The notes below the pieces were generated by a model, which was not told where the DNA came from, did no database searches, and was given only the letters and a program-made list of their open reading frames with translations. The translations under genes were made by a program, and so were the position numbers. This document shows positions 34,236 through 49,541 of a stretch of 64,000 nucleotides of DNA, in pieces. This DNA comes from Candidatus Lokiarchaeum ossiferum (GTDB lineage: Archaea > Asgardarchaeota > Lokiarchaeia > Sigyniarchaeales > Promethearchaeaceae): assembly GCA_025839675.1 (NCBI GenBank), contig CP104013.1:2849121-2913120 (forward strand), in the 5' to 3' direction. Within the stretch, counting starts at the first letter, position 1; each line of letters begins with the position of its first letter.

Positions 34236-35552
34236 TTGGATTACGTTCCCCATGATAAAAAAACAATGGAAACCATGCTAGCCAAAATTGGCGTATCAAG
34301 TATGGAAGAATTGTACGAAGACATTCCTAAAAGTTTACTTTTAGAGAAATTAAATTTACCCGAAGGTTTATCTGAAGCAGATCTATTAAAAAGAATGACT
34401 GTTTTATCAAAAAAGAACCACTTATATCGAACCGCCTTTATTGGAGCAGGATCTTATTATCATTTTATCCCAAGTTTAGTGGATTATGTCATAAGTAGAA
34501 GCGAATTTTTTACCGCTTACACCCCCTATCAAGCAGAAGCATCACAAGGATTTCTCCAAGCGATTTATGAATACCAATCCGCAATAACCCGCCTAACTAA
34601 AATGGATGTGACCAATGCATCAATGTATGATGTTGCAAGTGCTTTTGCAGAAGCAGCAACCATGTGTACTTTTGCGACACGCAAATCTAGAATTTTAATG
34701 CTTGAAGGAATGCATCCAGAATACATTGAAACGGTGAATACTTATTGCTGGGGTCGAAATATTCAGACTGAAATAGTACCCTTAACCAAATTGGAAGAAT
34801 CTCTCAATGATGATTGTGCAGGATTTCTCTTTCAGAGCCCTAATTTTTATGGAGAAATCGAAGATATTTCTTATTTAACAAAAATTGTTCGGGAAAAAGC
34901 AAAAAAATGTAAGATTGTTTATGGAATGCCAGATCCAACTTGTTTAGGTATATTGAAAGCACCTGGAGATTATGATATTGATATTTTTGTATCAGAAGGG
35001 ATGGGTCTTCCACCATCTTTTGGAGGACCAAATCTTGGAATCTTTGCTACAACTTCAAAATTGATGCGAAAAATGCCCGGTCGTGTTATTGGTGTCACAA
35101 AAGAAATTAATGGAGAAGGAGAAGGATTTGTTCTCACCCTACAAGCAAGAGAACAGCATATCCGGCGAGAAAAAGCACTTTCCAATATTTGTTCCAATCA
35201 ATCGTTGTGTATGCTGGCTTGCCTAGTATACATGGTTTGTTTAGGAAAAACAGGGTTGAAGCAAGTTGGAACCCAAAATATTCAAAAAGCAAATTATGTA
35301 AAGCGGGAAATGGCAAAAATTCCAGGATACAACCTTAAGGAATCACGGGCTACGTACAATGAATTTGTCATTGAATGCCCTAATGTAGATAAGTTCATAG
35401 GAAAATGTAAAGAAAATGATATATTACCTCCATTACCTCTTTCTCATTATTTTCCAGAACGATCTTCAGAAGTTTTAGTATGTGTTACTGAACAAAATTC
35501 AAAAGAAGATATTGAACTCTTCCTACGGGTTGCTAAGGAGGCAGCCCTTTAA
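34236..35552 (+). CDS. gcvPA: Glycine dehydrogenase (decarboxylating) subunit 1
   Basis: 438 aa. N-terminal half of split P-protein (archaeal/Firmicute-type split). Confidence 0.85.
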   Translation: MDYVPHDKKTMETMLAKIGVSSMEELYEDIPKSLLLEKLNLPEGLSEADLLKRMTVLSKKNHLYRTAFIGAGSYYHFIPSLVDYVISRSEFFTAYTPYQAEASQGFLQAIYEYQSAITRLTKMDVTNASMYDVASAFAEAATMCTFATRKSRILMLEGMHPEYIETVNTYCWGRNIQTEIVPLTKLEESLNDDCAGFLFQSPNFYGEIEDISYLTKIVREKAKKCKIVYGMPDPTCLGILKAPGDYDIDIFVSEGMGLPPSFGGPNLGIFATTSKLMRKMPGRVIGVTKEINGEGEGFVLTLQAREQHIRREKALSNICSNQSLCMLACLVYMVCLGKTGLKQVGTQNIQKANYVKREMAKIPGYNLKESRATYNEFVIECPNVDKFIGKCKENDILPPLPLSHYFPERSSEVLVCVTEQNSKEDIELFLRVAKEAAL

Positions 35553-35557
35553 GAAAG

Positions 35558-37000
35558 GTGATTATTATGAATAAAATTCAACTCATTTTTGAAAAGGGGT
35601 ATGAAACCACAAAAAATAACTTCGTACCTCAAATGGATATCGACGAAATTCCATTAACAGAATTACTCACTTCAGATAACTTACGGACTGATGAAATAAA
35701 TATTCCAGATATCCCTGAATTTGAAATTGTTCGCCATTTTACAAATTTAAGTCAAAAAAATTATGCAGTGGATTCAGGCATCTATCCTTTAGGTTCCTGT
35801 ACTATGAAATATAATCCACGGATAAATGAAAAAACGGCTCGTTTACCTCACTTTGCAAATATTCATCCCCTCCAAGAAGAGAATGAAGGGGCAATTGAGT
35901 TGATCTATAATTTAGGAAAGGATCTTTGCGAAATTTGTGGTATGGATGCATTTACTTTGAATCCTGCTGCAGGTGCACAAGGAGAACTCACAGGAATCCT
36001 CATTTTCAAAAAATATTTTGAAGTAAGGGGCGAAAAGAAAACAAAAATCATTGTACCTGACAGCGCTCATGGAACTAACCCTGCAAGTTCAGTAATGGCA
36101 GGTTTTGACATCATTGAAATTAAATCTGATGAAAATGGTGAACTTCCTTTGGATCAACTGGAATTTGCGATGCAGGAAGGGGATGTGGCGGGCTTGATGC
36201 TTACAAATCCTAACACTGTAGGGATGTTTGATAGAAATATTCTTCAAATTACGGAGATTGTGCATAAATATGGAGGGCTTTGCTATTATGATGGCGCAAA
36301 TTTAAACCCAATTCTTGGAATGTGCCGCCCAGGAGATATGGGATTTGATATCATCCATTTGAACCTACATAAAACCTTTTCCACACCTCATGGCGGCGGT
36401 GGCCCCGGAGCTGGACCAGTTGGAGTAAAAGCAGATTTAATTCCTTATCTCCCATGTCCACAAGTGATCTCTACTGAAAAAGGGTTAGCTTGCATGGACA
36501 ATGAGGAAACTACGATTGGGCGTTTACGAAGTTTTTGGGGAAATTTTGGTGTTTTGGTGAGGGCTTATACCTATATTTTAGCATTAGGGGCAGAAGGATT
36601 AAGACGGGCGGGTCAAAATGCAGTTTTAAATGCAAACTACCTCAGAGTTTCACTCCATGAGAAATATGCCGTACCTTATGACCGAATTTGTATGCATGAA
36701 TTTGTAATAGATGCCCATCTTCCAAATGGTGTAAATGCCGAAGATGTTGCTAAGGCACTTTTAGATCGTAAATTATATGCTCCCACTTCTTATTTTCCAT
36801 TGATAGTTCATGAAGCATTGATGGTAGAACCTACAGAAACGGAAAATAAACGTGAATTAGACCGATTCATTGAAGCCATGCTCGAAATATATGAAGAAAC
36901 TATAAATAATCCAGAGCATCTCAAATCGGGCCCACATAATTTGGATGTTGGGAGATTGGATGCTACGTTAGCTGCTCGAAAACCCCATCTAAAAGATTAA
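35558..37000 (+). CDS. gcvPB: Glycine dehydrogenase (decarboxylating) subunit 2, PLP-binding
   Basis: PLP-lysine region HLNLHKTFSTPHGGGGPG; follows gcvPA by 5 nt. Confidence 0.85.
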   Translation: MIIMNKIQLIFEKGYETTKNNFVPQMDIDEIPLTELLTSDNLRTDEINIPDIPEFEIVRHFTNLSQKNYAVDSGIYPLGSCTMKYNPRINEKTARLPHFANIHPLQEENEGAIELIYNLGKDLCEICGMDAFTLNPAAGAQGELTGILIFKKYFEVRGEKKTKIIVPDSAHGTNPASSVMAGFDIIEIKSDENGELPLDQLEFAMQEGDVAGLMLTNPNTVGMFDRNILQITEIVHKYGGLCYYDGANLNPILGMCRPGDMGFDIIHLNLHKTFSTPHGGGGPGAGPVGVKADLIPYLPCPQVISTEKGLACMDNEETTIGRLRSFWGNFGVLVRAYTYILALGAEGLRRAGQNAVLNANYLRVSLHEKYAVPYDRICMHEFVIDAHLPNGVNAEDVAKALLDRKLYAPTSYFPLIVHEALMVEPTETENKRELDRFIEAMLEIYEETINNPEHLKSGPHNLDVGRLDATLAARKPHLKD

Positions 37001-37087: not shown

Positions 37088-37903
37088 TTGATAACTTTGA
37101 AGAGTGATACTTCCGGGATAGTATTCGATATCAAGAAATTTGCTATCCATGATGGCCCAGGAATAAGAACAACAGTATTTTTCAAAGGATGTCCTTTAAA
37201 ATGTGAATGGTGCCACAATCCCGAAAGTCAGAAACATGAAATAGAACATATCTTAAAAAATCCTATTGACTCTCTTCATAACGATAATTCTTACGAGCAG
37301 ATTGGAAAAAAGATTAGATCTCTTGATTTAATTGATGAAATTAAGAAAGACGTATTATTTTACGATGAATCGGATGGAGGAGTTACCTTTTCAGGGGGGG
37401 ATCCTCTATCTCAACATGAATTTCTGAAATCTTGTCTTCAATTGTGCAAAGAAAATGAAATTCACACAGCTCTTGACACCGCAGGTTATCTTTCTTGGTC
37501 AAAACTCAAAGAAATTATTCCATTAGTTGATTTGGTTTTATACGATCTCAAATTTGTTGATGAACCGAAGCATAAAAAATATACTGGTGTATCAAACAAA
37601 TTGATACTCGAAAATTTGTCCAACCTTTCGGCCATGAACAAGGCAGTTTGGATAAGAATTCCAATAATTCCCACTCTTAATGATACAGAAGATGAAATTC
37701 ACCAAATGATAAACTTTATCTCACGATTAAATAATATCGGGAGCATTGATCTCTTGCCCTTTCATAAAATAGGTAAAAATAAATATCAACGTCTAAACCT
37801 TCCATATAAAATGGAAAATTTTTTTGAACCATCACTTGATAGAATGGAAGAATTAAAAAGAAAATTTGAGACCCTAAATATTCCTGTTAAAATTGGAGGT
37901 TAA
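37088..37903 (+). CDS. Glycyl-radical enzyme activating enzyme (radical SAM; PFL-AE family)
   Basis: N-terminal FAIHDGPGIRTTVFFKGCPLKCEWCHNPES (CxxxCxxC). Likely TTG start. The stop lies 6 nt before the glycyl radical enzyme gene. Confidence 0.8.
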   Translation: MITLKSDTSGIVFDIKKFAIHDGPGIRTTVFFKGCPLKCEWCHNPESQKHEIEHILKNPIDSLHNDNSYEQIGKKIRSLDLIDEIKKDVLFYDESDGGVTFSGGDPLSQHEFLKSCLQLCKENEIHTALDTAGYLSWSKLKEIIPLVDLVLYDLKFVDEPKHKKYTGVSNKLILENLSNLSAMNKAVWIRIPIIPTLNDTEDEIHQMINFISRLNNIGSIDLLPFHKIGKNKYQRLNLPYKMENFFEPSLDRMEELKRKFETLNIPVKIGG

Positions 37904-37909
37904 AATTAT

Positions 37910-40273
37910 ATGAATCAACGAATTCAAGCATTGAGAACTCAAAGTCGTACCGCTATCCCAACATTATCTCTTGAACGAGCAAAATTGATGACAGAATTTT
38001 ATAAATCTGGAGCAGGACACAAATTAAGCCCTCCTATGGCAAGAGCAGAATCTTTTAAATATCTTATGCAAAATAAGACAATTTGTATTAATCCAGGGGA
38101 ATTAATAGTAGGAGAACGAGGGCCCAGCCCAAAAGCAACATCGACTTATCCTGAAATTTGTTGCCATACTCTTCAAGATTTGGAAATTTTAAATAATCGG
38201 GAGAAAATATCTTTCAAGGTGACAGATGAAGATAAGAAATTAACTACATCGACCGTACTCCCCTTTTGGAAAAATCGATCAATTCGTGATAAAATTTTTG
38301 CACAGGTGGATCCTGAATGGATTGAAGCTTATGATGCAGGAGTTTTTACAGAATTTATGGAACAGAGGGCTCCAGGCCATACAGTCGCAGGGAAACAATT
38401 ATTTACCAAAGGATTTTTGGATTTCAAAGAGGATATCAAGGAGAGTATAGCAAATTTAGATTTCTTTAATGATGCCGAAGCCTTTGCAAAGCGAGAACAA
38501 TTACAAGCAATGAATATTGCTGCAGATGCAATTATAATTTATGCCAAACGCCATTCAGATCTAGCTCGATCATTAGCTAACACAGAAGTAAATCCCACTC
38601 GAAAATCTGAACTTTTAAAAATTGCCGCAACTTGTGATTATGTTCCAGCTCATGCACCAAGGACCATGTGGGAAGCCTTACAACATTATTGGTTTGTTCA
38701 TTTAGGTGTTATAACTGAATTAAGTACTTGGGATTCATTCAATCCAGGAAGATTAGATCAACACCTCATTCCATTTTATCGGATGGAAATCTCAAAGGGT
38801 ACCCTTACAAAAGAGTTTGCAAAGGAATTACTCCAAGCTTTCTGGGTGAAGTTTAATAACCAACCAGCACCCCCAAAGGTGGGAGTTACCGCTGAAGAAT
38901 CTAACACATATACAGATTTTTGCAACATTAATGTGGGGGGACTTAAGGAGGATGGTTCAGATGGAGTAAATGAACTCTCTTATATGATTTTAGATGTAAT
39001 TGAAGAGATGCGTTTGCTCCAACCGAGCTCAAATGTGCAGATTAGTAAAAAGACACCAAATCGTTTTCTCAATCGAACTTTAGAAATCTTGAAAACGGGA
39101 TTTGGACAACCTTCGATATTTAATACGGATGCAATAATCCAAGAATTAACACGGCAAGGAAAAGACATAATCGATGCTAGAAATGGTGGAGCAAGTGGAT
39201 GTGTTGAAATTGGTGCTTTTGGTAAGGAGGCTTATATTCTAACAGGATATTTCAACCTTGTTAAAATTTTAGAAATAACATTGCATAATGGGACTGATCC
39301 ACGTACGGGAAAACAAATTGGAATTCAAACCGGAAATCCTCAAGATTTTTCTACATTTGACATATTTATGAAAGCTTTTGAGAAGCAGGTGAAACATTTT
39401 GTGGATATAAAAATCAAAGGCAATATGGTGATTGAACAATTATGGGCTCAAAATCTTCCAGCAGTCTTTATGTCTATATTCGTTGATGATTGTATAAAAA
39501 CCGGAAAGGATTATAATGCGGGTGGTGCCCATTACAATACATCCTATATTCAAATTGTTGGTATGGGGTCCATAACAGATTCACTTGCTTCAATCAAACA
39601 TCATATTTTTGATAAGCAGACACTTTCAATAGAAGAAATGATTAGTATTTTGGATTCTAATTTTGTACAGAATGAAAAATTGCAGCAAGATTTTCTTCTA
39701 AATACTCCAAAATATGGGCAAGATGATGAATATGCAGATGATATTCTTCATGATGTTTTTGAAATCGTATATAATTCCATAAATGGGAGACCGAATTCAA
39801 AAGGGGGTGTTCATCGTATTAATTTGCTCCCCACAACTGTTCATGTTTATTTTGGCTCAGTTATAGGAGCGACTCCAGATGGGAGATTCGCAAGCAGGCC
39901 ACTTTCAGAAGGAATTTCTCCCGTGCAGGGAACTGATATCAAAGGACCAACAGCTGTCTTAAAGTCTGCAGGTAAAATTGATCATCTTAGAACAGGTGGA
40001 ACCTTACTGAATCAAAAATTCACGCCAAGCCTAATGAAAGATGAAAGTGGCATCAAAAAAGTTGCACATTTAGTACGAAGCTACTTCAAAATGGATGGGC
40101 ATCACATTCAATTCAATGTGGTTTCTGCTGAAACTCTTCGCGCTGCTCAAAAAAATCCTCAAGATTTTCGAAATTTAATAGTTCGAGTCGCTGGTTACAG
40201 CGATTACTTCGTTAATCTTGGTTCAGATTTACAAGAAGAAATAATTAAACGAACAGAACATAAAGAATTCTAA
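37910..40273 (+). CDS. Glycyl radical enzyme, dehydratase/lyase (1,2-eliminase) subclass
   Basis: 787 aa. C-terminal glycyl radical motif VRVAGYSDYF (Gly codon 40193-40195). Active-site GCVE (Cys 39200-39202, Glu 39206-39208) instead of the Cys-Cys pair of pyruvate formate-lyase. Confidence 0.85.
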   Translation: MNQRIQALRTQSRTAIPTLSLERAKLMTEFYKSGAGHKLSPPMARAESFKYLMQNKTICINPGELIVGERGPSPKATSTYPEICCHTLQDLEILNNREKISFKVTDEDKKLTTSTVLPFWKNRSIRDKIFAQVDPEWIEAYDAGVFTEFMEQRAPGHTVAGKQLFTKGFLDFKEDIKESIANLDFFNDAEAFAKREQLQAMNIAADAIIIYAKRHSDLARSLANTEVNPTRKSELLKIAATCDYVPAHAPRTMWEALQHYWFVHLGVITELSTWDSFNPGRLDQHLIPFYRMEISKGTLTKEFAKELLQAFWVKFNNQPAPPKVGVTAEESNTYTDFCNINVGGLKEDGSDGVNELSYMILDVIEEMRLLQPSSNVQISKKTPNRFLNRTLEILKTGFGQPSIFNTDAIIQELTRQGKDIIDARNGGASGCVEIGAFGKEAYILTGYFNLVKILEITLHNGTDPRTGKQIGIQTGNPQDFSTFDIFMKAFEKQVKHFVDIKIKGNMVIEQLWAQNLPAVFMSIFVDDCIKTGKDYNAGGAHYNTSYIQIVGMGSITDSLASIKHHIFDKQTLSIEEMISILDSNFVQNEKLQQDFLLNTPKYGQDDEYADDILHDVFEIVYNSINGRPNSKGGVHRINLLPTTVHVYFGSVIGATPDGRFASRPLSEGISPVQGTDIKGPTAVLKSAGKIDHLRTGGTLLNQKFTPSLMKDESGIKKVAHLVRSYFKMDGHHIQFNVVSAETLRAAQKNPQDFRNLIVRVAGYSDYFVNLGSDLQEEIIKRTEHKEF

Positions 40274-40423: not shown

Positions 40424-41557
40424 ATGGCAGAAAACAAATTAGATCTTGCATATTTAGAAAAATTATGTAATGCATTTGGCCCTTCCGGTCACGAACGTGA
40501 AGTTCAAAAAATGGTTTTAAACTACGGTAAGCCCCTAGCGGATGAAGTTTTATTTGATAAAACTGGATCAGTTATTTTCAAACGCGGAACTTCGGGTCCT
40601 AAAATCATGCTTGCTGGACATGCTGATGAAATTGGCTATCTTGTTCAAAGTATTGAAAAAAATGGATTTCTAAAAATCTCCAATCTGGGAGGTATTTTTC
40701 CAGGAAACTTGATTGGTCATGAAATTCTTATCCGACCATTCAAAGGGGGGGAAAAAATCATTGGAATCACCACCAATGGTTCTTTAGCTGGGCCACATAA
40801 AGACAAAATTCCTAAATTGAGTGATCTTTTTGTTGATATTGGATGCGCTACTGATGAAGAAGTGAAGGAATTGGGAATTCGAGTTGGAGATCCTGCCGTT
40901 CCTTACGCAGTATATCGATCTTTAACCCGAAAACGAAAGGAAAAGAAAAAAGATGCCAAACCTGATGAAGAACCAGAGATAAAGGAAGCACGTTTGGCAG
41001 TAGCAAAAGCATTTGACGATCGGATAGGTGTGTTTATGGCACTTGAAGTAATGCGACGATTGTCTGATGATCACATTTCCCATCCCAATATTGTTTATGC
41101 CGCATCCACAACCCAAGAAGAAGTGGGATGTAGAGGAGCTCGAACAGCTGCACAATTAATTCAACCAGATATTGGATTTTCACTTGATGTAACTATTTGC
41201 GGAGGAGGACCAGGAGCAAAGTCTATTGAACAAAAAATGGGGAAAGGCGTTGCTGTAGGAGTTTATGATAGTTCTATGATTGCAAATCCAGTTTTCCGAA
41301 GGTTTGTTATGGAACTTGCAGAAGAAAAGGGTATTCCTTGTCAAACAGGATTTTTAAATAGAGGGGGAACTGATGCAGGACAGATACATCTTTCTGGAAT
41401 TGGAGCACCATCGTTATTTTTCGGTATTCCAACCCGTTATGTGCATTCCCATCATGCAATGTTAGATTTAGATGATGTTGAAGGCGCCATTCAACTATTA
41501 ATCGAGTTAATTAAAAAATTGGATGAAAAAACTGTTGCTAGTTTTACCACTTTATAA
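40424..41557 (+). CDS. M42 family aminopeptidase (TET/FrvX-like)
   Basis: MLAGHADEIGYLV metal-binding motif and M42 length. Contains an unusual Lys/Glu-rich insertion (RKRKEKKKDAKPDEEPEIKE). Confidence 0.8.
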   Translation: MAENKLDLAYLEKLCNAFGPSGHEREVQKMVLNYGKPLADEVLFDKTGSVIFKRGTSGPKIMLAGHADEIGYLVQSIEKNGFLKISNLGGIFPGNLIGHEILIRPFKGGEKIIGITTNGSLAGPHKDKIPKLSDLFVDIGCATDEEVKELGIRVGDPAVPYAVYRSLTRKRKEKKKDAKPDEEPEIKEARLAVAKAFDDRIGVFMALEVMRRLSDDHISHPNIVYAASTTQEEVGCRGARTAAQLIQPDIGFSLDVTICGGGPGAKSIEQKMGKGVAVGVYDSSMIANPVFRRFVMELAEEKGIPCQTGFLNRGGTDAGQIHLSGIGAPSLFFGIPTRYVHSHHAMLDLDDVEGAIQLLIELIKKLDEKTVASFTTL

Positions 41558-41594: not shown

Positions 41595-43229
41595 TCAAAA
41601 TTCATTTTGATCTGTCGATATTTGAGACAAAATTTTAATCAATTTCAAATTAGGGGTCGAAAGTAGATACTTATACAACCGATTTTGAGGATAAATCATA
41701 CAATATTTGGAATTTTTTAAATCACGTAAAAAATTCAAAATGAATCGGGTTGAGAAAAACTTAGCGGAATGAAGGTCAAAAATCATGTTCCTTACGAAAG
41801 ATTTTGTCAAAGTATCTGAAAAACAGACTATTGAAGAAATAAAACCATATTTTTTACTTAACAAGTTTTTGATTTGAGGTAAGTAAGATTGTTCTTCAGA
41901 AGAATGAGAAGTATCCAAGCTTTCAAGAGTTAGAGAATTCGAATCGATTTTGGTTACTTCTTCTAAAACACCTTGTGAAAATCTCAATAAAACCAATGAA
42001 AACTCTGAAAGATCAAATCTCGAGGAAAATTTGGCTAAGTTTTGTACATTATTCCCTAAAATAAGGAGGATTTTCCCCTCAGAACCTATTTGGTGAATCA
42101 TTGCATTATTTAGTAATGATGGAATTGCCCAAAAGGCAATTTTTCTTGGATTAATAGTCAAATTTCGAGCATACTTTGAATATCGGAAAAGTTCTCGCAA
42201 AATTTTAGGTTTGGGATAGCAATTCCAATCTGTCCCATAATTTTTGTAACAGGATAACATTTTCTCTCCTAACAAATTCCATCGATCTTTGGTAGAAGGA
42301 AAGGGCGTTTGAAAGAGATCTTCTAAATATTGGACAATAGATTTGACTTGAAACATGAAATTAAAAGAAGTATGGTAGGATTTCTTTAAATATTTCATAA
42401 TTTTTGCATCCCTTTCAACAAAATCTTCACAAGATAATATTGTTTCTGGAATTTTACATGGAGTTATTATGAAGCGACTATACCGCTTAATTAATTTCAA
42501 AGCAAAATAATAGTCTGATCCTTTGAAAGTAAGAGAAAATGATTCATTCGGTGCCAAAGTTTCAATATACCGATAGAATGACTCATATTTAAAATTTCCA
42601 AAAAATTGATGACTTGAGGTTAAGAAATCTAGTCCCACAGATTTTGGAAAATATAAAAATTGATTTTGGCTTTGTGCATCAATTAGTCGATCTATAAAAT
42701 AACCCATCAAAGCAAAAATACTGCACGCTGGAGAAGATGTTTCATTATTTCCGGATTTTTCAACAAATTTTTCCAAAAGAGTTTCAGAGATAACATGAAT
42801 ATTTCCGAGATCGCTCCCAAATTTTTTTTTTATAAAAGGTGTTAATTTTTCAAAGGTTGTTTCAAGATGATAAATTGCATCTTCTTCCAAGGATAACTCC
42901 TTAACATCCAAAGTTACCATTTCTTTAACCATATTAAATTGGTTGACTGTATGAAGATATGCGCGTAAAATGACACCATTTGTATCCACAACAAATTCTA
43001 TCGATACTGGGTTCTGGTTCAAAAAGAGAGCATAGAAATCAGCCCATAATTTATGAAATAAGATCGAATTCGTCTCTAATTCAAGAAATGGCAGTTTTAT
43101 CACAATGTTGGATAGAATTTGAACCTTGGAATATTCTTGTGCAGTTGATAAATGCTTATGCCAAGTAACAAAGTACTCATGTATTTTTTTTTGAAGATTT
43201 TTTGATTTTATCGAATCTATTTTACTCAT
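41595..43229 (-). CDS. Hypothetical protein (544 aa) with no recognisable domain; last gene of the rSAM/DUF362 cluster
   Basis: Long clean ORF overlapping the upstream gene by 8 nt. No motif recognised. Confidence 0.5.
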   Translation of the reverse strand: MSKIDSIKSKNLQKKIHEYFVTWHKHLSTAQEYSKVQILSNIVIKLPFLELETNSILFHKLWADFYALFLNQNPVSIEFVVDTNGVILRAYLHTVNQFNMVKEMVTLDVKELSLEEDAIYHLETTFEKLTPFIKKKFGSDLGNIHVISETLLEKFVEKSGNNETSSPACSIFALMGYFIDRLIDAQSQNQFLYFPKSVGLDFLTSSHQFFGNFKYESFYRYIETLAPNESFSLTFKGSDYYFALKLIKRYSRFIITPCKIPETILSCEDFVERDAKIMKYLKKSYHTSFNFMFQVKSIVQYLEDLFQTPFPSTKDRWNLLGEKMLSCYKNYGTDWNCYPKPKILRELFRYSKYARNLTINPRKIAFWAIPSLLNNAMIHQIGSEGKILLILGNNVQNLAKFSSRFDLSEFSLVLLRFSQGVLEEVTKIDSNSLTLESLDTSHSSEEQSYLPQIKNLLSKKYGFISSIVCFSDTLTKSFVRNMIFDLHSAKFFSTRFILNFLRDLKNSKYCMIYPQNRLYKYLLSTPNLKLIKILSQISTDQNEF

Positions 43230-45156
43230 TTGACTTTTCTCCTTCCGGTTTTTCTTCTTGAGTATCTTTAGAAACTGATTCTGGTAAAAGAACTGATTCG
43301 GATCTTAGGGATTTTTGTTTTGAGTAGTTTTTTTTTTCAATTTTCAGGTTATCAATTTGAGGTTGAAACTTAGGTTTCAGTTCTTCCAATGCATTCTTTC
43401 GATTCTGTTTGTACTTCTGAATTTGCTCTTTATATGTTTGTTTAGCAAGTTTAAGCTCAGATTTAATCTGAGGTAATATTGGACGATTTATCTCGGTGAT
43501 TTTTGCCTTTAATTTAGATCTTTGTTGTTTTTGCTGAATCGTTCTTTCCTTTTTATCAAATTCTATAAAATTATAGACCGTTTTCATACTATCCAAAAAT
43601 GTAGTAAGCGTCGGGATCATCTTGGAAGGGATGAAATTTGCGATTGTCAGCATATTCTGTAAACCTATTGGTTGATAATTAGAAAGTTCCACTACTTTAG
43701 AATTTAAAACAACATCAGGTGCTTTGTTTTGAATTCGTAACTTTTCGTGTTTATATGATAGATCGAGACGGATCCTTTCTAATTTGTAATGAAAACTTAT
43801 AGTTGATTTTTCTAACTTCTTTTTCTTTTTCAATTTTAGGAGTTTTAGAGAAGGAGTCTGCTCTTTTTCTTCAATCATTGATATTTGATGATCAATTTTG
43901 GACTGAAATAATTCATTTTTTCTTCTTAATTTTGCCTGTTTTCCAATAATTGCTCGTTCTAACTCATCCCCATCCAAAATTCGAGTGACTCCAGTTTCAA
44001 AACCAAGAATTTCAAGAGGTTCTTTTAAAGAACTTTTAAGAATTGAGCGAAATGCATAATCTTGAGTCGATTGAATTGCAGAGTTCCCAAATACTACAAT
44101 ATATTCTTTACCCGTAAAATTCGGTTCTGGAGGATTTTCTCCTGCAAGTAAGATCCAATCTCCAACATTATAAAGATCTTTGAATAAAATTGTTTGAAAT
44201 CGTAAGAGTAGGAGGTAGAGTGTGTGATGATCGGCAACACTCAGATTTCCAAGATGAAGGGAAAGTCCAGGAAGCTTAAAAAGGTTTAAATCTTTTGGAA
44301 TAGGCTTGATATCGAGTTTTGCGATATTTTCAGGAGTTTTTACCACATTATTTCCTGAAGATGCGAATTTTTCTTCATTTATTTGTTTTAAGAAGGGATT
44401 TTGCTTAGGATCAAACCCTAAATCAATTAATGTTTCCCAATCCAACGTTAAACAATCATTTCCAAAATAAACCCGATGTAAATGTGTTGTTTTAATTCTC
44501 TTTCCTATACATGGCCCATTCTGTTCTATAATGGAAAATCCATCGTTAATAAAAAGTAAGGGTTTTTCTTTAGATAAACTTTGAGAGGGGCGATCAATCC
44601 ATTCTTGATAAGTCTCAGGGGATTTACTTGTATTTGAATTGCTAAAAACCGAGAATAGAGGAAGAGATGCCCAAAATCCGAATAAAGGATCTTGCTTAAG
44701 CTGGGATAAAAGAACAATTGAATCAATTTGTGAAAAGAGAGAAAGATTTGGTTCGTTTATTACCTCACTTGGCTCAAGGGTTGGATCTGTCTCACCATCA
44801 AGATTTTGGGAAATTTTTTGATCGAAAACATCTGATCTATCAACCAAAATTGCATTATGGTGGTTTATCCAAGTTTTTAACCCATAATTTGAGAGAAGAG
44901 CATCAGAACTATAGCCATTGAAAACAACAGGAAGCACATAGATTTCAGATATTCCTCGAGATTTTAAGAAATTTATTAGAACAACTAGAGAATCGGGATT
45001 GAAGGATACAGGAAAAGGTTGTGGAATCAACATATCAACTACAATTAAAACCTTACCCTTACTTGGAATAAAACCTCCTTTTTGCTCTAAAAGTCTCAAT
45101 CCATCAATTATGGTTTTTTCGAGTGAATTATTTTCTGAGATAATTGTGATGCCCAT
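43222..45156 (-). CDS. DUF362-domain protein with a long Lys-rich coiled-coil C-terminal extension (644 aa)
   Basis: N-terminal DUF362 landmarks: ITIISENNSLEKTIIDGLRLL...KGKVLIVVDM... and INDGFSIIEQNGPCIG (like vvDGivgMEGnGP). The C-terminal roughly 250 aa are heptad-like and K/E/Q-rich. Confidence 0.5.
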   Translation of the reverse strand: MGITIISENNSLEKTIIDGLRLLEQKGGFIPSKGKVLIVVDMLIPQPFPVSFNPDSLVVLINFLKSRGISEIYVLPVVFNGYSSDALLSNYGLKTWINHHNAILVDRSDVFDQKISQNLDGETDPTLEPSEVINEPNLSLFSQIDSIVLLSQLKQDPLFGFWASLPLFSVFSNSNTSKSPETYQEWIDRPSQSLSKEKPLLFINDGFSIIEQNGPCIGKRIKTTHLHRVYFGNDCLTLDWETLIDLGFDPKQNPFLKQINEEKFASSGNNVVKTPENIAKLDIKPIPKDLNLFKLPGLSLHLGNLSVADHHTLYLLLLRFQTILFKDLYNVGDWILLAGENPPEPNFTGKEYIVVFGNSAIQSTQDYAFRSILKSSLKEPLEILGFETGVTRILDGDELERAIIGKQAKLRRKNELFQSKIDHQISMIEEKEQTPSLKLLKLKKKKKLEKSTISFHYKLERIRLDLSYKHEKLRIQNKAPDVVLNSKVVELSNYQPIGLQNMLTIANFIPSKMIPTLTTFLDSMKTVYNFIEFDKKERTIQQKQQRSKLKAKITEINRPILPQIKSELKLAKQTYKEQIQKYKQNRKNALEELKPKFQPQIDNLKIEKKNYSKQKSLRSESVLLPESVSKDTQEEKPEGEKSNE

Positions 45157-45239
45157 TTTTTAATCCTTTAAATCGTTCTTATTTATTCAAATGTCGTTTC
45201 CAAATAAGAATTTTTCACAAAAACTAATTAGAAAAAAAT

Positions 45240-46541
45240 TTACTTTTGATCATATCGAGTTTTAACTAATCCCGCTTGCGCTTGATATTCGCCATAAGCT
45301 TTACCTGCTTTTGCCAATTTTCCAATAATATGTGAAATTCTAGGATCAATAATTCCTGGATTTTCATTTTCAAAAGGTGTCCCAGGGAGAGGCATAAAAG
45401 TATGGGTATGAATGCGGACATTTTTCACCTTGTTAGTCAGAACTTGATTAAAAAATGAAATATTCGCTTGAATATCTTCCTCAATCTCACCAGGTAACCC
45501 AAAAATGAAATCAATTTCTGCACCTATCCCAAATTCATCCATAAGATCGACAGCGGTGATGACATCTTCGATGTTATGTCCCCTTGCTATTGATTTCAAG
45601 AGACGATTGGAAGCAGTTTGAGCCCCAATCAATAATTTTCGATTTGTCATTAAAGGTGTGACAATTTCCAGCATTTCCCGAGTTACAGATTCAGGCCTAA
45701 CTTCACTTGGAAAAGTACCAAAATATATGCCTTTAATAGAATTTTTTTGCGAAATTCCAGTTAGTAATTCTTGTACCGCTTCTATGTTTGGTGTAATTCC
45801 ATTTGGAGAACCGTATGCAAATGCGTTGGGTGTTAAAAACCATACTTTATCAAATTTTATTTCGGACGCTCTTTTAACATTTTGAAGAATGGTTTGAATG
45901 GGAACATGTCGCATTTTATTTGAGGAACACCCTGTTTGACAAAATTTGCATCGATAAGGACATCCTCGAGAAATTTCAATGGGTCCAAAGAGACGGAATT
46001 TCTCTGAAAATGAGGGAGTGACCCCTAATTCAATAATTTTTGCAGGTAATCCAGGTGAATATTGAGGTTTCAGTTGGATCACCCCATTTAGCATAGGATA
46101 GTTAAGGAGATCTTGTGAAGCATTATATAAAGTATGTAATAATTGAGAAAATCCAATTTCACCTTCCCCTGGAATAAGGAAATCAACATTAAGGTTTTGA
46201 AATTCTTGAGGTGATGCCGTTACATGAGGACCTCCTGCCACCGTAAAGATTTTTGGATGAAATTGGTTGAAAAAATATGGAGTGGATTTACTAAACTCTT
46301 TAAATTGATTCATTTGAATTGACAACAACGAAAAAGCTAGAACTACAAAATCATAGTTTTGAAATGGAATTTCCTTAATTTTTGAAGAATGTTGAGGAGA
46401 TTTATAAAGTTGAAACGGTAAAGCAATAAAATCGTAGTTTTCCATCAGCTGGGAATTATTTTCTAAATATCCCATCAAAATGCTCCATGAATACCGGTTT
46501 GGTTTGTCATACCCAAATAATACCAATCCTTTCTTGATCAC
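45240..46541 (-). CDS. B12-binding-domain radical SAM protein (archaeal MJ_1487-like family)
   Basis: N-terminal Rossmann-like B12-binding region, then the radical SAM core ISRGCPYRCKFCQ (CxxxCxxC); 433 aa. Confidence 0.7.
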   Translation of the reverse strand: MIKKGLVLFGYDKPNRYSWSILMGYLENNSQLMENYDFIALPFQLYKSPQHSSKIKEIPFQNYDFVVLAFSLLSIQMNQFKEFSKSTPYFFNQFHPKIFTVAGGPHVTASPQEFQNLNVDFLIPGEGEIGFSQLLHTLYNASQDLLNYPMLNGVIQLKPQYSPGLPAKIIELGVTPSFSEKFRLFGPIEISRGCPYRCKFCQTGCSSNKMRHVPIQTILQNVKRASEIKFDKVWFLTPNAFAYGSPNGITPNIEAVQELLTGISQKNSIKGIYFGTFPSEVRPESVTREMLEIVTPLMTNRKLLIGAQTASNRLLKSIARGHNIEDVITAVDLMDEFGIGAEIDFIFGLPGEIEEDIQANISFFNQVLTNKVKNVRIHTHTFMPLPGTPFENENPGIIDPRISHIIGKLAKAGKAYGEYQAQAGLVKTRYDQK

Positions 46542-46676
46542 ATGAAATCCAAACCATTCCTTAAATAAAGAATTTTTGAAGAGACTGTTGGAGAAAAAAA
46601 CTAAAACTGGAATGCTTCTTAATAAGTTTCTAATAAGGATTCCTTAAAAGTATGCAACGGTTTTACATCATGATTA

Positions 46677-49541
46677 TTGAAAAAAGAGATGGCTAACCTG
46701 AATCTTTCGGAAGAATTAACAAACTCAGCAAAAATTCTTGAACAAAGAATTGGCATGCAAGCAATTATTTCAAAGATCTCTTCTCTATTTATAAGCTGTC
46801 CCTTTGATCTTGTTGATGAAAACATCGAAAAATCATTAGAAATTATAGGTAAGTTTACAAAAGTTGATACATGCCATGTGATTATTCCAAATGAGGATAA
46901 CAACCACAGCCTAGTTTTTGAATGGCACGATAAATCAGTAGAATCAACCAAACAAGTATTTGAACATGCAATTTTATCGGAAAAAATCTTTCAGAATAAC
47001 CTACTGATAAATCCACTTTTTGTAGCACAAACGAGCAAATTTAATTTTCCTTCTCCCAAGTTGAAGCAAATTTTTACGAATTTAGGAATACTGTCTTTCC
47101 TTATTGTCCCTATGAAATATCTCGGTAAAAATTTTGGGTTTATTACATTATCCAATTCTACCCATAAAAGAACTTTAGATCCAAAAAATCAAGCATTGGT
47201 TAACTCAATTGCAGAGATATTTGTTTCAAAAATAATAACAAAAAAATTAGAAGAAGAGAAGCAAGAACAAGAACTTAAATACCAAAATCTATTCAACAAT
47301 ATGGTTAATGGGTTCTCCTATCACAATGTAGTCTTTGATGCCAATGACGAACCCATAGATTTTATTTATGTGGATGTCAATCCTGCATTTACAATTTTAA
47401 CGGGTAGATCTCGTGAAGAAGTGATTGGTAAGAAATTATCGGAAATCAGTCCAAATTATTTGAAAGTACTGAAAAAACATTATTATAAAGTTATAGTCGA
47501 TAAATTTAATCTTACTTACGAGTATTATTCAAGTTCTATTGACAAATGGTTTTTGGTTAATTCTTACTCACCGGAAGATGGATATTTTGTTAATATATTT
47601 AATGATATTACAGAACGTAAAATAGCAGAACAAAAGCTTCAACAAAACGAAGAATGGTTTCAAGATGTTCTCAAGAATGCCTTGGATGCATCGTACAGAA
47701 TCAATTACATTACTCACAAAGTGGAGTATATTTCCCCAGTTTTTACCAAAATGACAGGAATATCAACAGAAAGTTTTAATTATCAAGATTTTAAAGCGCG
47801 AATTCATCCAACAGATTTTGAACACCAAGAAACTTACTTTTATGAAGAAATTAGAAGAAATCCAAGTTCGAAAATTCCATTGAAGATGAAATATAGGTTT
47901 AAATGCTATGGAGATAATTATCTTTGGTTGGAAGACAATTTTACTTTAATTGTGGATGAAAAAAGGCAGCCTTGCTATTCAATTGGTACACTTAGAGACA
48001 TTCATCAACAAACTGAAGCAGAAAGAAGGTTAAAACGGAGTGAACTAAGATTTCGGGAGGTTTTGGAACACTCATCAGATGTAATTTATCGAATTGCATT
48101 TAAAACAAGAAAATTTGATTTTATTTCACCCTCAATTGAAGTTAATTTAGGATATACAGTAAATGAAATATTAAATCTCAATTTTAATGATTCTCTTGCA
48201 TTAATTCACCCAGAAGATCGACAATTAGTAAATAACAAGATGAAACAATTATTAAATGAGAAGAAACACGAAAATACCATTAATATTCAATATAGGCTTA
48301 AAAACAAACAAAATAGCTATATTTGGGTCAATGAAAATCGGACGTCTATACGCAATAAAAAAAATAAGATTATATTTATTTTAGGAGTATTTAGAGATGT
48401 CACAGATCAATTAGAATTAGAAAAAGAACGATTACGAGCAGATAAAATTGAATCAATTGGACTCTTGGCAGCCGGAATCGCCCACGATTTTAATAATCTA
48501 CTCGTTTCAATATTAGGGAACGTAAATTTATTACAAATGACTCAAATAGATGAGGAACAATCAGATATATTACACGATATTGAACAGGGCACTTTTAACG
48601 CAACTAATTTAACAAAACAACTATTAACATTTGCAAAAGGCGGAGCCCCTATAAAGAAAAGTGAAAATTTGAAAGATATTGTTGAAAATGCCACAAAATT
48701 TGTTTTAAGGGGATCAAAATGCCGAGCAACTTTCAATTTTGAATCAAATCTTCCCCAAACCGCTATTGATGCAGGACAAATGAATCAAGTTCTTATGAAT
48801 TTACTTATCAATGCCGATCATGCAATGAGTGAGGGAGGAGTGATTCAGATTACAGTCAAATCAACATTGTTAGAAGAATCATCAAGTATACCTCTAAAAA
48901 AGGGAAAATATCTTCTGATTGAGATTAAAGATCAAGGAAAGGGAATCAAGCCAATACACAAAGATAGCATATTTAAACCATACTTCACAACAAAATCTAA
49001 AGGATCGGGGCTGGGATTGGCGACTTGTTATTCCATCATCAAACAGCATAATGGCTACATTAATTTTCGCTCCAATCTTCAAGAGGGAACAACATTCTTT
49101 TTCTACCTCCCGATTTCAGAGTCAGAAACGATTAAAGCTAATGAAGAACAACAAATATCGAGTAAAATCAATAAATCTATTTTAGTTTTAGATGATGATG
49201 CCAACATTCACAAGCTTCTGCAACGTTTATTCAAGAAACTCTCAATTAAACTCGATTCTATTTATGATGGAAAAGAGATATTAGAAATTTATAAGAAAAA
49301 AGACTCAATGGGAGAAAAATATGATTTAGTGATCATGGATTTAACTATTCCGGGAGGGATTGGAGGACAAGAAGCAATTTCCCGGCTTAAATCATATGAT
49401 CGGAATGTTAAAGCAATTGTTTCCAGCGGATATTCAAATGATCCCATCATGTCAAATTATGAAAAATATGGTTTTATTGATGTTCTTCCGAAACCTTTCA
49501 CGATTCAGGAATTAAAAACCATCATCGAAAAACATTGTTAA
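46677..49541 (+). CDS. Hybrid sensor histidine kinase: GAF-like, 3x PAS, HisKA, HATPase_c, and a C-terminal receiver domain
   Basis: H-box AAGIAHDFNNLL and ATPase G-boxes (GSGLGLA). Receiver domain LVLDDDANIHKLL...DLVIMDLTIPGG. Repeated PAS modules (DITERKIAEQKL, DIHQQTEAER, DVTDQLELEKE linkers). Confidence 0.85.
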   Translation: MKKEMANLNLSEELTNSAKILEQRIGMQAIISKISSLFISCPFDLVDENIEKSLEIIGKFTKVDTCHVIIPNEDNNHSLVFEWHDKSVESTKQVFEHAILSEKIFQNNLLINPLFVAQTSKFNFPSPKLKQIFTNLGILSFLIVPMKYLGKNFGFITLSNSTHKRTLDPKNQALVNSIAEIFVSKIITKKLEEEKQEQELKYQNLFNNMVNGFSYHNVVFDANDEPIDFIYVDVNPAFTILTGRSREEVIGKKLSEISPNYLKVLKKHYYKVIVDKFNLTYEYYSSSIDKWFLVNSYSPEDGYFVNIFNDITERKIAEQKLQQNEEWFQDVLKNALDASYRINYITHKVEYISPVFTKMTGISTESFNYQDFKARIHPTDFEHQETYFYEEIRRNPSSKIPLKMKYRFKCYGDNYLWLEDNFTLIVDEKRQPCYSIGTLRDIHQQTEAERRLKRSELRFREVLEHSSDVIYRIAFKTRKFDFISPSIEVNLGYTVNEILNLNFNDSLALIHPEDRQLVNNKMKQLLNEKKHENTINIQYRLKNKQNSYIWVNENRTSIRNKKNKIIFILGVFRDVTDQLELEKERLRADKIESIGLLAAGIAHDFNNLLVSILGNVNLLQMTQIDEEQSDILHDIEQGTFNATNLTKQLLTFAKGGAPIKKSENLKDIVENATKFVLRGSKCRATFNFESNLPQTAIDAGQMNQVLMNLLINADHAMSEGGVIQITVKSTLLEESSSIPLKKGKYLLIEIKDQGKGIKPIHKDSIFKPYFTTKSKGSGLGLATCYSIIKQHNGYINFRSNLQEGTTFFFYLPISESETIKANEEQQISSKINKSILVLDDDANIHKLLQRLFKKLSIKLDSIYDGKEILEIYKKKDSMGEKYDLVIMDLTIPGGIGGQEAISRLKSYDRNVKAIVSSGYSNDPIMSNYEKYGFIDVLPKPFTIQELKTIIEKHC

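Follow-up and report, generated by a model that had tools for sequence, protein, structure and literature searches.

A translationally coupled gene pair of Lokiarchaeota, with a divergent DUF362-family member, next to a TIGR04013 radical SAM gene in Candidatus Lokiarchaeum ossiferum

A conserved gene pair and its radical SAM neighbour

We analysed a 64,000-nucleotide window of DNA from Candidatus Lokiarchaeum ossiferum, a member of the phylum that NCBI lists as Promethearchaeota (the former Lokiarchaeota), and concentrated on three consecutive genes of the minus strand (Table 1). Gene 1 encodes a radical S-adenosylmethionine (SAM) protein of family TIGR04013, gene 2 a divergent relative of the DUF362 family, and gene 3 a member of a protein family that is restricted to this lineage. 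Genes 2 and 3 correspond to NEF87_002438 and NEF87_002437, respectively, with identical products. The comparisons described below suggest that genes 2 and 3 are a conserved unit of their own, to which the radical SAM gene was joined later.

A first-pass annotation of the same DNA had already placed three minus-strand open reading frames here, for products of 433, 644 and 544 residues, with a gap of 83 nucleotides between the first two, and we recovered this layout unchanged. Its overlap of 4 nucleotides between genes 2 and 3 needs correction, as the two genes share 8 nucleotides, ATGAGTAA, in which the ATG of gene 3 is embedded (aATGAgTAA). This embedded start codon, and not selection on the protein, accounts for the conserved N-E or N-D at the C-terminus of gene 2. 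The spacer between genes 1 and 2, inspected by eye with an archaeal host in mind, has a run of seven T directly after the stop codon of the radical SAM gene and contains TATA-like A/T tracts. Orthologues of all three proteins are colinear over their full length down to about 20% identity, so we regard all three as real genes, and none of the products has a hydrophobic stretch that would suggest a membrane span. Co-expression of the three genes is probable, and their co-transcription is plausible.

Table 1. Features of the three-gene locus, in positions of the window
Feature	Positions	Strand	Description
Gene 1	45240-46541	-	433 aa, GTG start; radical SAM protein of family TIGR04013 (MJ_1487), N-terminal domain B12-binding-like
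B12-binding-like domain of gene 1, aa 64-134	46140-46352	-	PF02310 at 29.9 bits (E=5.6e-7), short of its gathering score (32.1)
CxxxCxxC radical SAM cluster motif (CPYRCKFC, aa 194-201)	45939-45962	-	Read directly from the sequence; within the Pfam Radical_SAM match
Spacer between genes 1 and 2	45157-45239	-	83 nt, AT-rich
Gene 2	43222-45156	-	644 aa; divergent DUF362-family protein with a putative degenerate Fe-S module and two predicted long helical additions
DUF362-like (LarA-clan) domain, aa ~1-270, including INDGFSIIEQNGPCIG (aa 203-218)	44347-45156	-	
First part of putative degenerate hydrogenase-small-subunit/NuoB-like module, aa 296-375	44032-44271	-	CxxC and GDC cysteines replaced: LGNLSVADHH; FGNSAI (family alignment, cysteine census)
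Predicted helical insertion, aa 397-476 (80 residues)	43729-43968	-	Between the third and fourth cluster-ligand positions; absent in short orthologues
Second part of putative module, aa 477-534 (58 residues, non-helical)	43555-43728	-	Remnant of the N..VL..PGCPP segment, here VVELSNYQPIG
Predicted C-terminal charged helical extension, aa 535-621 (87 residues)	43294-43554	-	Absent in short orthologues
Stop/start overlap of genes 2 and 3	43222-43229	-	8 nt
Gene 3	41595-43229	-	544 aa; uncharacterised Lokiarchaeota-specific family
Best-conserved block of gene 3, aa 335-382	42084-42227	-	W335, P339, R349, N360, K363, W367, P370, G382; conserved in at least 47 of 51 aligned sequences
Conserved extreme C-terminus of gene 3, ..D.(H/N)EF-COOH	41598-41606	-	E543 in 46/51, F544 in 49/51, D540 in 44/51

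To place the locus among its relatives, we surveyed 16 independent loci with a homologue of gene 3. In every one of them genes 2 and 3 lay side by side on the same strand, and their start and stop codons overlapped by 4-17 nucleotides in 15; in L026 a gap of 10 nucleotides separates the two. A TIGR04013 radical SAM gene was found 34-97 nucleotides upstream on the same strand in 12 loci (the window, L001, L002, L004-L007, L019, L020, L022, L025 and L026). The pair stood without it in four (L016/17, L021, L023 and L024), where for L024, with 318 nucleotides of upstream sequence, this means none within the usual 34-97 nucleotides. The short upstream sequence of L003 meant that it was counted for the pair only, and a contig of 1.9 kb, L008, holds the radical SAM gene followed by the start of gene 2. 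The co-occurrence of the three genes in other genomes, on which the first-pass annotation had staked its reading, was found; homologues of the 544-residue protein did not always accompany the radical SAM gene.

Within the 12 triad loci, order and strand were constant across radical SAM identities of 41-83% and gene 3 identities of 21-71%. The flanks varied, with a histidine kinase, an aminotransferase, DUF1152 or Cpn60 upstream and an M42 peptidase, gcvP or a methyltransferase downstream. Insertions were seen beside the triad and never inside it: a histidine kinase and an ACT protein on one side, and an M42 peptidase, a PFL-like enzyme and its activase on the other. In many loci conservation extends to a wider block made up of the aminotransferase, the radical SAM gene, the pair and glycine-cleavage genes. 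When the same genome pairs were compared, the radical SAM proteins shared about 59% identity versus about 28% for the products of genes 2 and 3. On a high-GC archaeal metagenome contig, L010, a TIGR04013 radical SAM gene (370 bits) comes after a gene for a NOG1 GTPase, with no pair beside it.

The three proteins and the genes around them

Gene 2 had been annotated at first pass as carrying a complete DUF362 domain. The motif on which this was based, INDGFSIIEQNGPCIG, is present, and yet the window protein itself gave no match to DUF362 (PF04015) in Pfam even at E<=10. Its orthologues are more informative. Four of the six close ones gave colinear matches to PF04015, and to no other family, that stayed below the gathering score of 24 bits (best, 23.3 bits), and more distant ones exceeded it (45.1, 30.1 and 28.6 bits). 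The best of these, from L016, covers profile positions 1-199 of 200, and in BLASTP the window protein matches it with 25.5% identity over 392 residues (E=2e-23); against the L023 orthologue the E-value was 7e-19. By these comparisons the DUF362 assignment is right in substance, although it is visible through the orthologues only. DUF362 and the N-terminal domain of LarA (DUF2088) both belong to Pfam clan CL0471 (PMC11770544), and the literature that we searched for DUF362, COG2006 or PF04015 gave nothing functional beyond this clan membership. A profile of the N-terminal domain of the gene 2 family retrieved nothing significant from the Protein Data Bank (PDB).

The part of gene 2 behind this domain was compared in a family alignment of 11 members. 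Three short orthologues (L016, L021 and L023; 452-471 residues) have four invariant cysteines in the arrangement G.(M/A)C(S/L)(G/S)C ... FGDCA ... PGCPP. The CxxC, GDC and GCPP elements are invariant in these three and in L022, and are also present in L024; in all five the first reads CSGC or CLSC. In their order and local context the cysteines match the ligands of the proximal [4Fe-4S] cluster in [NiFe]-hydrogenase small subunits and NuoB. Two of the short orthologues independently gave weak matches to Oxidored_q6 (PF01058), with E-values of 0.003-0.008 and scores of 16.4-17.8 bits against a gathering threshold of 27, and these matches cover the part of the profile from GxCA to GCPP. When a profile of the cysteine-bearing forms was compared with the PDB, all of the top ten hits were [NiFe]-hydrogenase small subunits, aligned at the GCPPNP motif of the proximal cluster, with E-values of 0.1-2.2. 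The window protein had no Oxidored_q6 match in Pfam.

Long forms of gene 2 differ from the short ones both in their cysteines and in their length. In the window protein all four cysteines are missing, and the corresponding positions read LGNLSVADHH, FGNSAI and SNYQPIG; nine other long forms likewise lack them, in a census of the long forms other than that of L026. Two proteins, those of L024 and L022, are intermediates in that they have the insertion and keep all four cysteines. The insertion corresponds to alignment columns of about 520-625, which are gapped in L016, L021 and L023. In the AlphaFold2 (AF2) model it forms helices at residues 397-431 and 435-476 with a predicted local distance difference test score (pLDDT) of 80-90, and K, E, Q and R together make up 44% of its residues. 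The C-terminal extension is modelled as helices 535-557 and 560-621 (pLDDT 82-91; 52% K, E, Q and R). No part of the gene 2 model other than these helices (pLDDT 80-91) is predicted with confidence.

The first-pass annotation had described the region as a coiled-coil tail of roughly 250 residues. We found instead two helical stretches on either side of a conserved, non-helical segment (residues 477-534) in which N485, P496 and P515 vary little or not at all. A hydrophobic periodicity of 3.5 residues did not exceed that of shuffled sequences except at residues 560-621, where the result was marginal (reached by 4% of shuffles). Because heptad-type periodicity is not significant outside this stretch, a coiled coil is unproven and we prefer to speak of long charged helices. 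Similarly, what had been called an unusual fusion is better described as a decayed four-cysteine module, resembling hydrogenase small subunits and NuoB, that appears to be split by a helical insertion. Among the forms without cysteines, D41, P49, G92, D205, G214, D239, K326, D327, T364, R370 and N485 remain invariant or nearly so. That so many DUF362 positions stay invariant argues against simple decay of gene 2. We conclude that gene 2 represents a DUF362 variant with a new architecture.

Gene 3 was described at first pass as an orphan without a recognisable domain. The second half of this description stood: no member of the family matched Pfam (E<=1), the window protein had no match in NCBIfam, and a profile of 51 sequences found nothing in the PDB at E<=10. 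The protein is, however, not an orphan. A word-indexed homologue search retrieved only three relatives with gene 3 and three with gene 2, and for this reason both looked like orphans; the same search with a concatenated alignment of genes 2 and 3 returned self-matches only and was probably swamped by lysine-rich candidates. An exhaustive hmmsearch of 1.84e9 cluster representatives corrected the picture for gene 3. It returned 94 hits with E<=1e-3, of which 76 reached E<=1e-10; most were full-length proteins of 500-600 residues. All named members come from Promethearchaeota, Lokiarchaeota or Harpocratesius. In an alignment of 51 sequences the mean column identity was 28%, and no cysteine was conserved. 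An hhalign comparison gave no relation between the gene 3 and gene 2 families (probability 0.2%). The AF2 models of both proteins were built on alignments of three sequences and were poor, and that of gene 3 (pLDDT 39) was unusable and left out of the fold search. Gene 3 is a member of a real, lineage-specific and uncharacterised family of about 520-570 residues that is not in Pfam, and we found no description of this family in the literature searched.

The radical SAM identity of gene 1 that had been proposed at first pass was borne out, with a match to TIGR04013 over the entire profile (positions 1-382 of 382; E=3.5e-108, 361.9 bits against a cutoff of 251) and to Radical_SAM in Pfam (72.5 bits, residues 188-361). 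The B12-binding domain that had been proposed with it scored just below threshold (Table 1), and we call the N-terminal domain B12-binding-like. The closest solved structures are other B12-type radical SAM enzymes. The N-terminus of the protein, MIKKGLVLFGYDKPNRYSW, is kept in orthologues, and this conservation supports the GTG start. The adjoining radical SAM proteins of four further triad loci (L007, L019, L020 and L022) scored 330-380 bits against TIGR04013. Gene 1 is thus a typical representative of its family, which is known from throughout the archaea but uncharacterised. We found no mention of TIGR04013 in the literature searched. For MJ1487, a re-annotation of M. jannaschii proposed a role like that of BzaE on no other basis than 29% identity (PMC11742838); we treat this as a lead and no finding.

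Some further observations concern the radical SAM genes of related loci. The gene at L001:6695-7996, on a metagenome contig, was called 22 codons short (411 residues); a tblastn search and the sequence upstream reveal the conserved N-terminus and a GTG start as in the window. Small open reading frames overlap the start of the radical SAM gene in two Promethearchaeum-like loci (148 residues at L005:162-608 and 172 residues at L007:4257-4775), neither with a Pfam match, and the window has no such frame. On L010 the radical SAM gene overlaps the end of the NOG1-type GTPase gene, and a 611-residue coiled-coil protein is encoded upstream on the other strand (L010:5910-8281 and L010:3940-5775). In L016, L021 and L023, too, NOG1 genes are found at a distance of a few kb from the pair. 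A link of TIGR04013 to ribosome biogenesis is a lead only.

Around the triad, the window encodes a PFL-like glycyl radical enzyme (787 residues; PFL-like, 734 bits, and Gly_radical), a radical SAM activase (271 residues) and an M42 peptidase on the plus strand (37088-40273 and 40424-41557). This block sits between gene 3 and gcvPA/PB (34236-37000). As gcvP directly follows gene 3 in most related loci, it appears to have been inserted in the Lokiarchaeum lineage. On the other side, a hybrid histidine kinase (two PAS domains, HisKA, HATPase_c and a receiver; 954 residues, with a TTG start as listed) is encoded at 46677-49541 on the plus strand, divergent from the radical SAM gene, as it is in L001 and L025. 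A minus-strand frame of 110 residues that overlaps it (46619-46951) is probably spurious. Downstream of the short pairs, at L021:7723-12786 and L023:8009-13027, genes on the same strand encode a GHMP kinase, an SIS isomerase, an HAD phosphatase, a PfkB-like or unknown protein and a split transketolase. The set is reminiscent of a heptose or sugar-phosphate pathway and was found neither in L016 nor in the triad loci. The pair of L024, which has both the cysteines and the insertion, is followed on the same strand by genes for an acyl-CoA dehydrogenase and for electron-transfer flavoprotein beta and alpha (L024:4337-7363), a redox context seen in this one locus only. A 572-residue frame with weak similarity to MULE/Mutator transposases lies upstream of the syntenic block in L007 (523-2241).

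Interpretation of the locus

Our best reading, to which we give a probability of roughly 0.55, is that genes 2 and 3 encode a conserved two-subunit module that was secondarily linked to the radical SAM gene. The locus would then combine two units, an archaea-wide TIGR04013 radical SAM enzyme and a Lokiarchaeota-specific, translationally coupled pair whose products form a heteromeric complex. The start/stop coupling of genes 2 and 3 is consistent with stoichiometric co-production of two subunits of one complex. The ancestral form of the first subunit would have been a DUF362 protein of the LarA clan with a C-terminal four-cysteine module of the hydrogenase-small-subunit or NuoB kind, which presumably bound a [4Fe-4S] cluster. 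This subunit would have gained the helical insertion of about 80 residues, a hairpin, inside the Fe-S module; the pair would then have become linked to the radical SAM gene on the same strand; and lastly the C-terminal helical extension would have been added to the subunit and all four cluster cysteines lost from it. Because all four are lost, the 644-residue protein of L. ossiferum should be unable to hold that cluster, and its redox function would have gone with it. The protein keeps the acidic and glycine positions of DUF362, and our best guess is that it serves as a ligand-binding or scaffolding subunit rather than an electron-transferring one, with helices that would mediate oligomerisation or attachment.

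Several points weigh against this reading. Homology of the Fe-S module fell below the threshold of significance in every single test, and the case for it lies in the agreement of the tests and motifs. The complex of the two products, although it is the most likely arrangement, is deduced only from the coupling of their genes. Given the poor AF2 model the helix predictions are soft, as is the match of the model to a LarA-like fold (overall pLDDT 50). L024, with its short upstream sequence, is one of the four loci in which the pair stands without the radical SAM gene. The triad loci all belong to related Lokiarchaeia that share wider synteny, so the adjacency of the radical SAM gene could be phylogenetic inertia. 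Moreover, we could assign no function to any of the three proteins.

Other explanations differ in how closely the radical SAM gene belongs to the pair. In the view taken at first pass, all three genes might constitute one functional system, a new modification pathway, in which the radical SAM enzyme modifies the complex of genes 2 and 3 or makes or alters a ligand bound by the DUF362 domain. The shared strand and short spacers would fit this idea, in particular the spacers of 34-38 nucleotides in several loci, which leave little room for a separate promoter, and so would an order that is invariant in 12 loci although radical SAM identity drops to 41% and that of gene 3 to 21%, with insertions confined to the flanks. 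We nevertheless think it possible rather than probable, as the pair does without the radical SAM gene in four loci, TIGR04013 is archaea-wide and occurs without the pair in L010, the radical SAM protein evolves far more slowly, as expected of an independent housekeeping enzyme, and the T7 run follows its stop codon in the window. It may be, at the opposite extreme, that the adjacency is inherited synteny without functional meaning and that genes 2 and 3, which evolve fast, are what is left, perhaps still decaying, of a redox enzyme that has kept little function in Lokiarchaeum. The conservation of the wider block in many loci, the loss of all four cluster cysteines and the high divergence of genes 2 and 3 speak for this explanation. 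It accords poorly with the persistence of full-length frames, colinearity and start/stop coupling in genes 2 and 3 down to about 20% identity, with the DUF362 positions that are invariant in the forms without cysteines, and with the most divergent triad, that of L022, which keeps its three genes together despite entirely different flanks; we consider it unlikely. A pathway common to the radical SAM enzyme and the pair is plausible: persistence of the triad through turnover of its flanks favours it, whereas the independent distribution of the radical SAM gene, its slower evolution and the conservation of wider synteny favour an inherited adjacency.

A further explanation concerns the origin of the pair. 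Genes 2 and 3 could be a degenerate pair of small and large subunits of the [NiFe]-hydrogenase or complex-I kind, with gene 3 as a highly diverged NuoD-like homologue whose C-terminus marks a former active site. Their order, a small-subunit-like module and then a partner of about 550 residues, agrees with this, as do the matches of the GCPP-type motif to hydrogenase small subunits. The extreme C-terminus of gene 3 is conserved, which may be likened to the terminal DPCxxCxxH/R or GEVDR of large subunits. The gene 3 family does not bear it out, having no conserved cysteines, no match to the corresponding Pfam families (E<=1) and no hydrogenase large subunit or NuoD among PDB matches of its profile at E<=10; its unusable AF2 model offered nothing in favour. 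We judge this origin highly improbable, and the profile, Pfam and gene 2-family comparisons gave no support to gene 3 as a relative of hydrogenase large subunits or NuoD.

Returning to the two-subunit module with a secondarily linked radical SAM gene, one could extend it to a bolder proposal. A Lokiarchaeota-specific two-subunit enzyme, made up of a LarA-clan domain, an Fe-S module like that of hydrogenase small subunits and a novel large partner, might have been converted to a non-redox scaffold or structural assembly with long helices that is made or modified together with the TIGR04013 radical SAM enzyme. This we regard as a long shot; if it were true, it would provide the first functional context for DUF362 and TIGR04013. 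The suggestion made at first pass, that the genes may represent a new modification or structural system, is likewise possible, and a new mechanism is not demonstrated on present evidence.

Significance and comparison with known systems

DUF362 and TIGR04013 are large families without established function, and the partner family of about 550 residues has no Pfam model. The analysis defines a tightly coupled gene pair that is restricted to Lokiarchaeota and gives DUF362 and TIGR04013 a genomic context. It also arranges the gene 2 family in a putative stepwise series, from a short cysteine-bearing form to a form with the helical insertion and then to a long form without cysteines that is linked to the radical SAM gene, and it names concrete proteins for comparison, namely the short form of the L016 type and NEF87_002438. 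Because L. ossiferum is among the few cultured Asgard archaea, the predictions of a complex, of the loss of an Fe-S cluster and of co-expression with the radical SAM gene are directly testable.

Among known systems, the LarA (DUF2088) nickel-pincer racemases differ from gene 2 in that no member of the gene 2 family matched PF09861 and none of the neighbourhoods listed contains lar genes for the cofactor known as nickel-pincer nucleotide, NPN (larB, larC or larE). Within DUF362 (PF04015, COG2006), gene 2 stands apart: it is too diverged for the Pfam model, has two long helical additions and a decayed cysteine module, is always paired with a partner of about 550 residues that has no Pfam family, and is also without lar genes nearby. 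The [NiFe]-hydrogenase small subunits and NuoB (PF01058) share with the cysteine-bearing orthologues the series CxxC...G(D)CA...GCPP in the same order. In the gene 2 family, however, the spacing is shorter, the module is fused behind a DUF362 domain and all scores are sub-threshold, and the window protein further departs from these proteins through the loss of all four cysteines and an insertion of 80 residues between ligands 3 and 4.

For gene 1, the next-best relatives after its own family are TIGR04014 (MJ_0865, the methyl-coenzyme M reductase glutamine C-methyltransferase) and the MiaB/RimO methylthiotransferases, at 73.8 and 65.5 bits. Both resemble gene 1 in having a flavodoxin-like N-terminal domain followed by the radical SAM core, but these scores are far under the respective cutoffs (360 and 251), the context of gene 1 contains no methyl-coenzyme M reductase and the protein has no TRAM domain match. 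The closest known system is TIGR04013 itself, the MJ_1487 family, which gene 1 resembles from end to end (362 bits) including the CxxxCxxC motif, and from which it shows no difference at the level of the family. The linkage of this archaea-wide enzyme to a DUF362-derived gene pair is specific to one lokiarchaeal clade.

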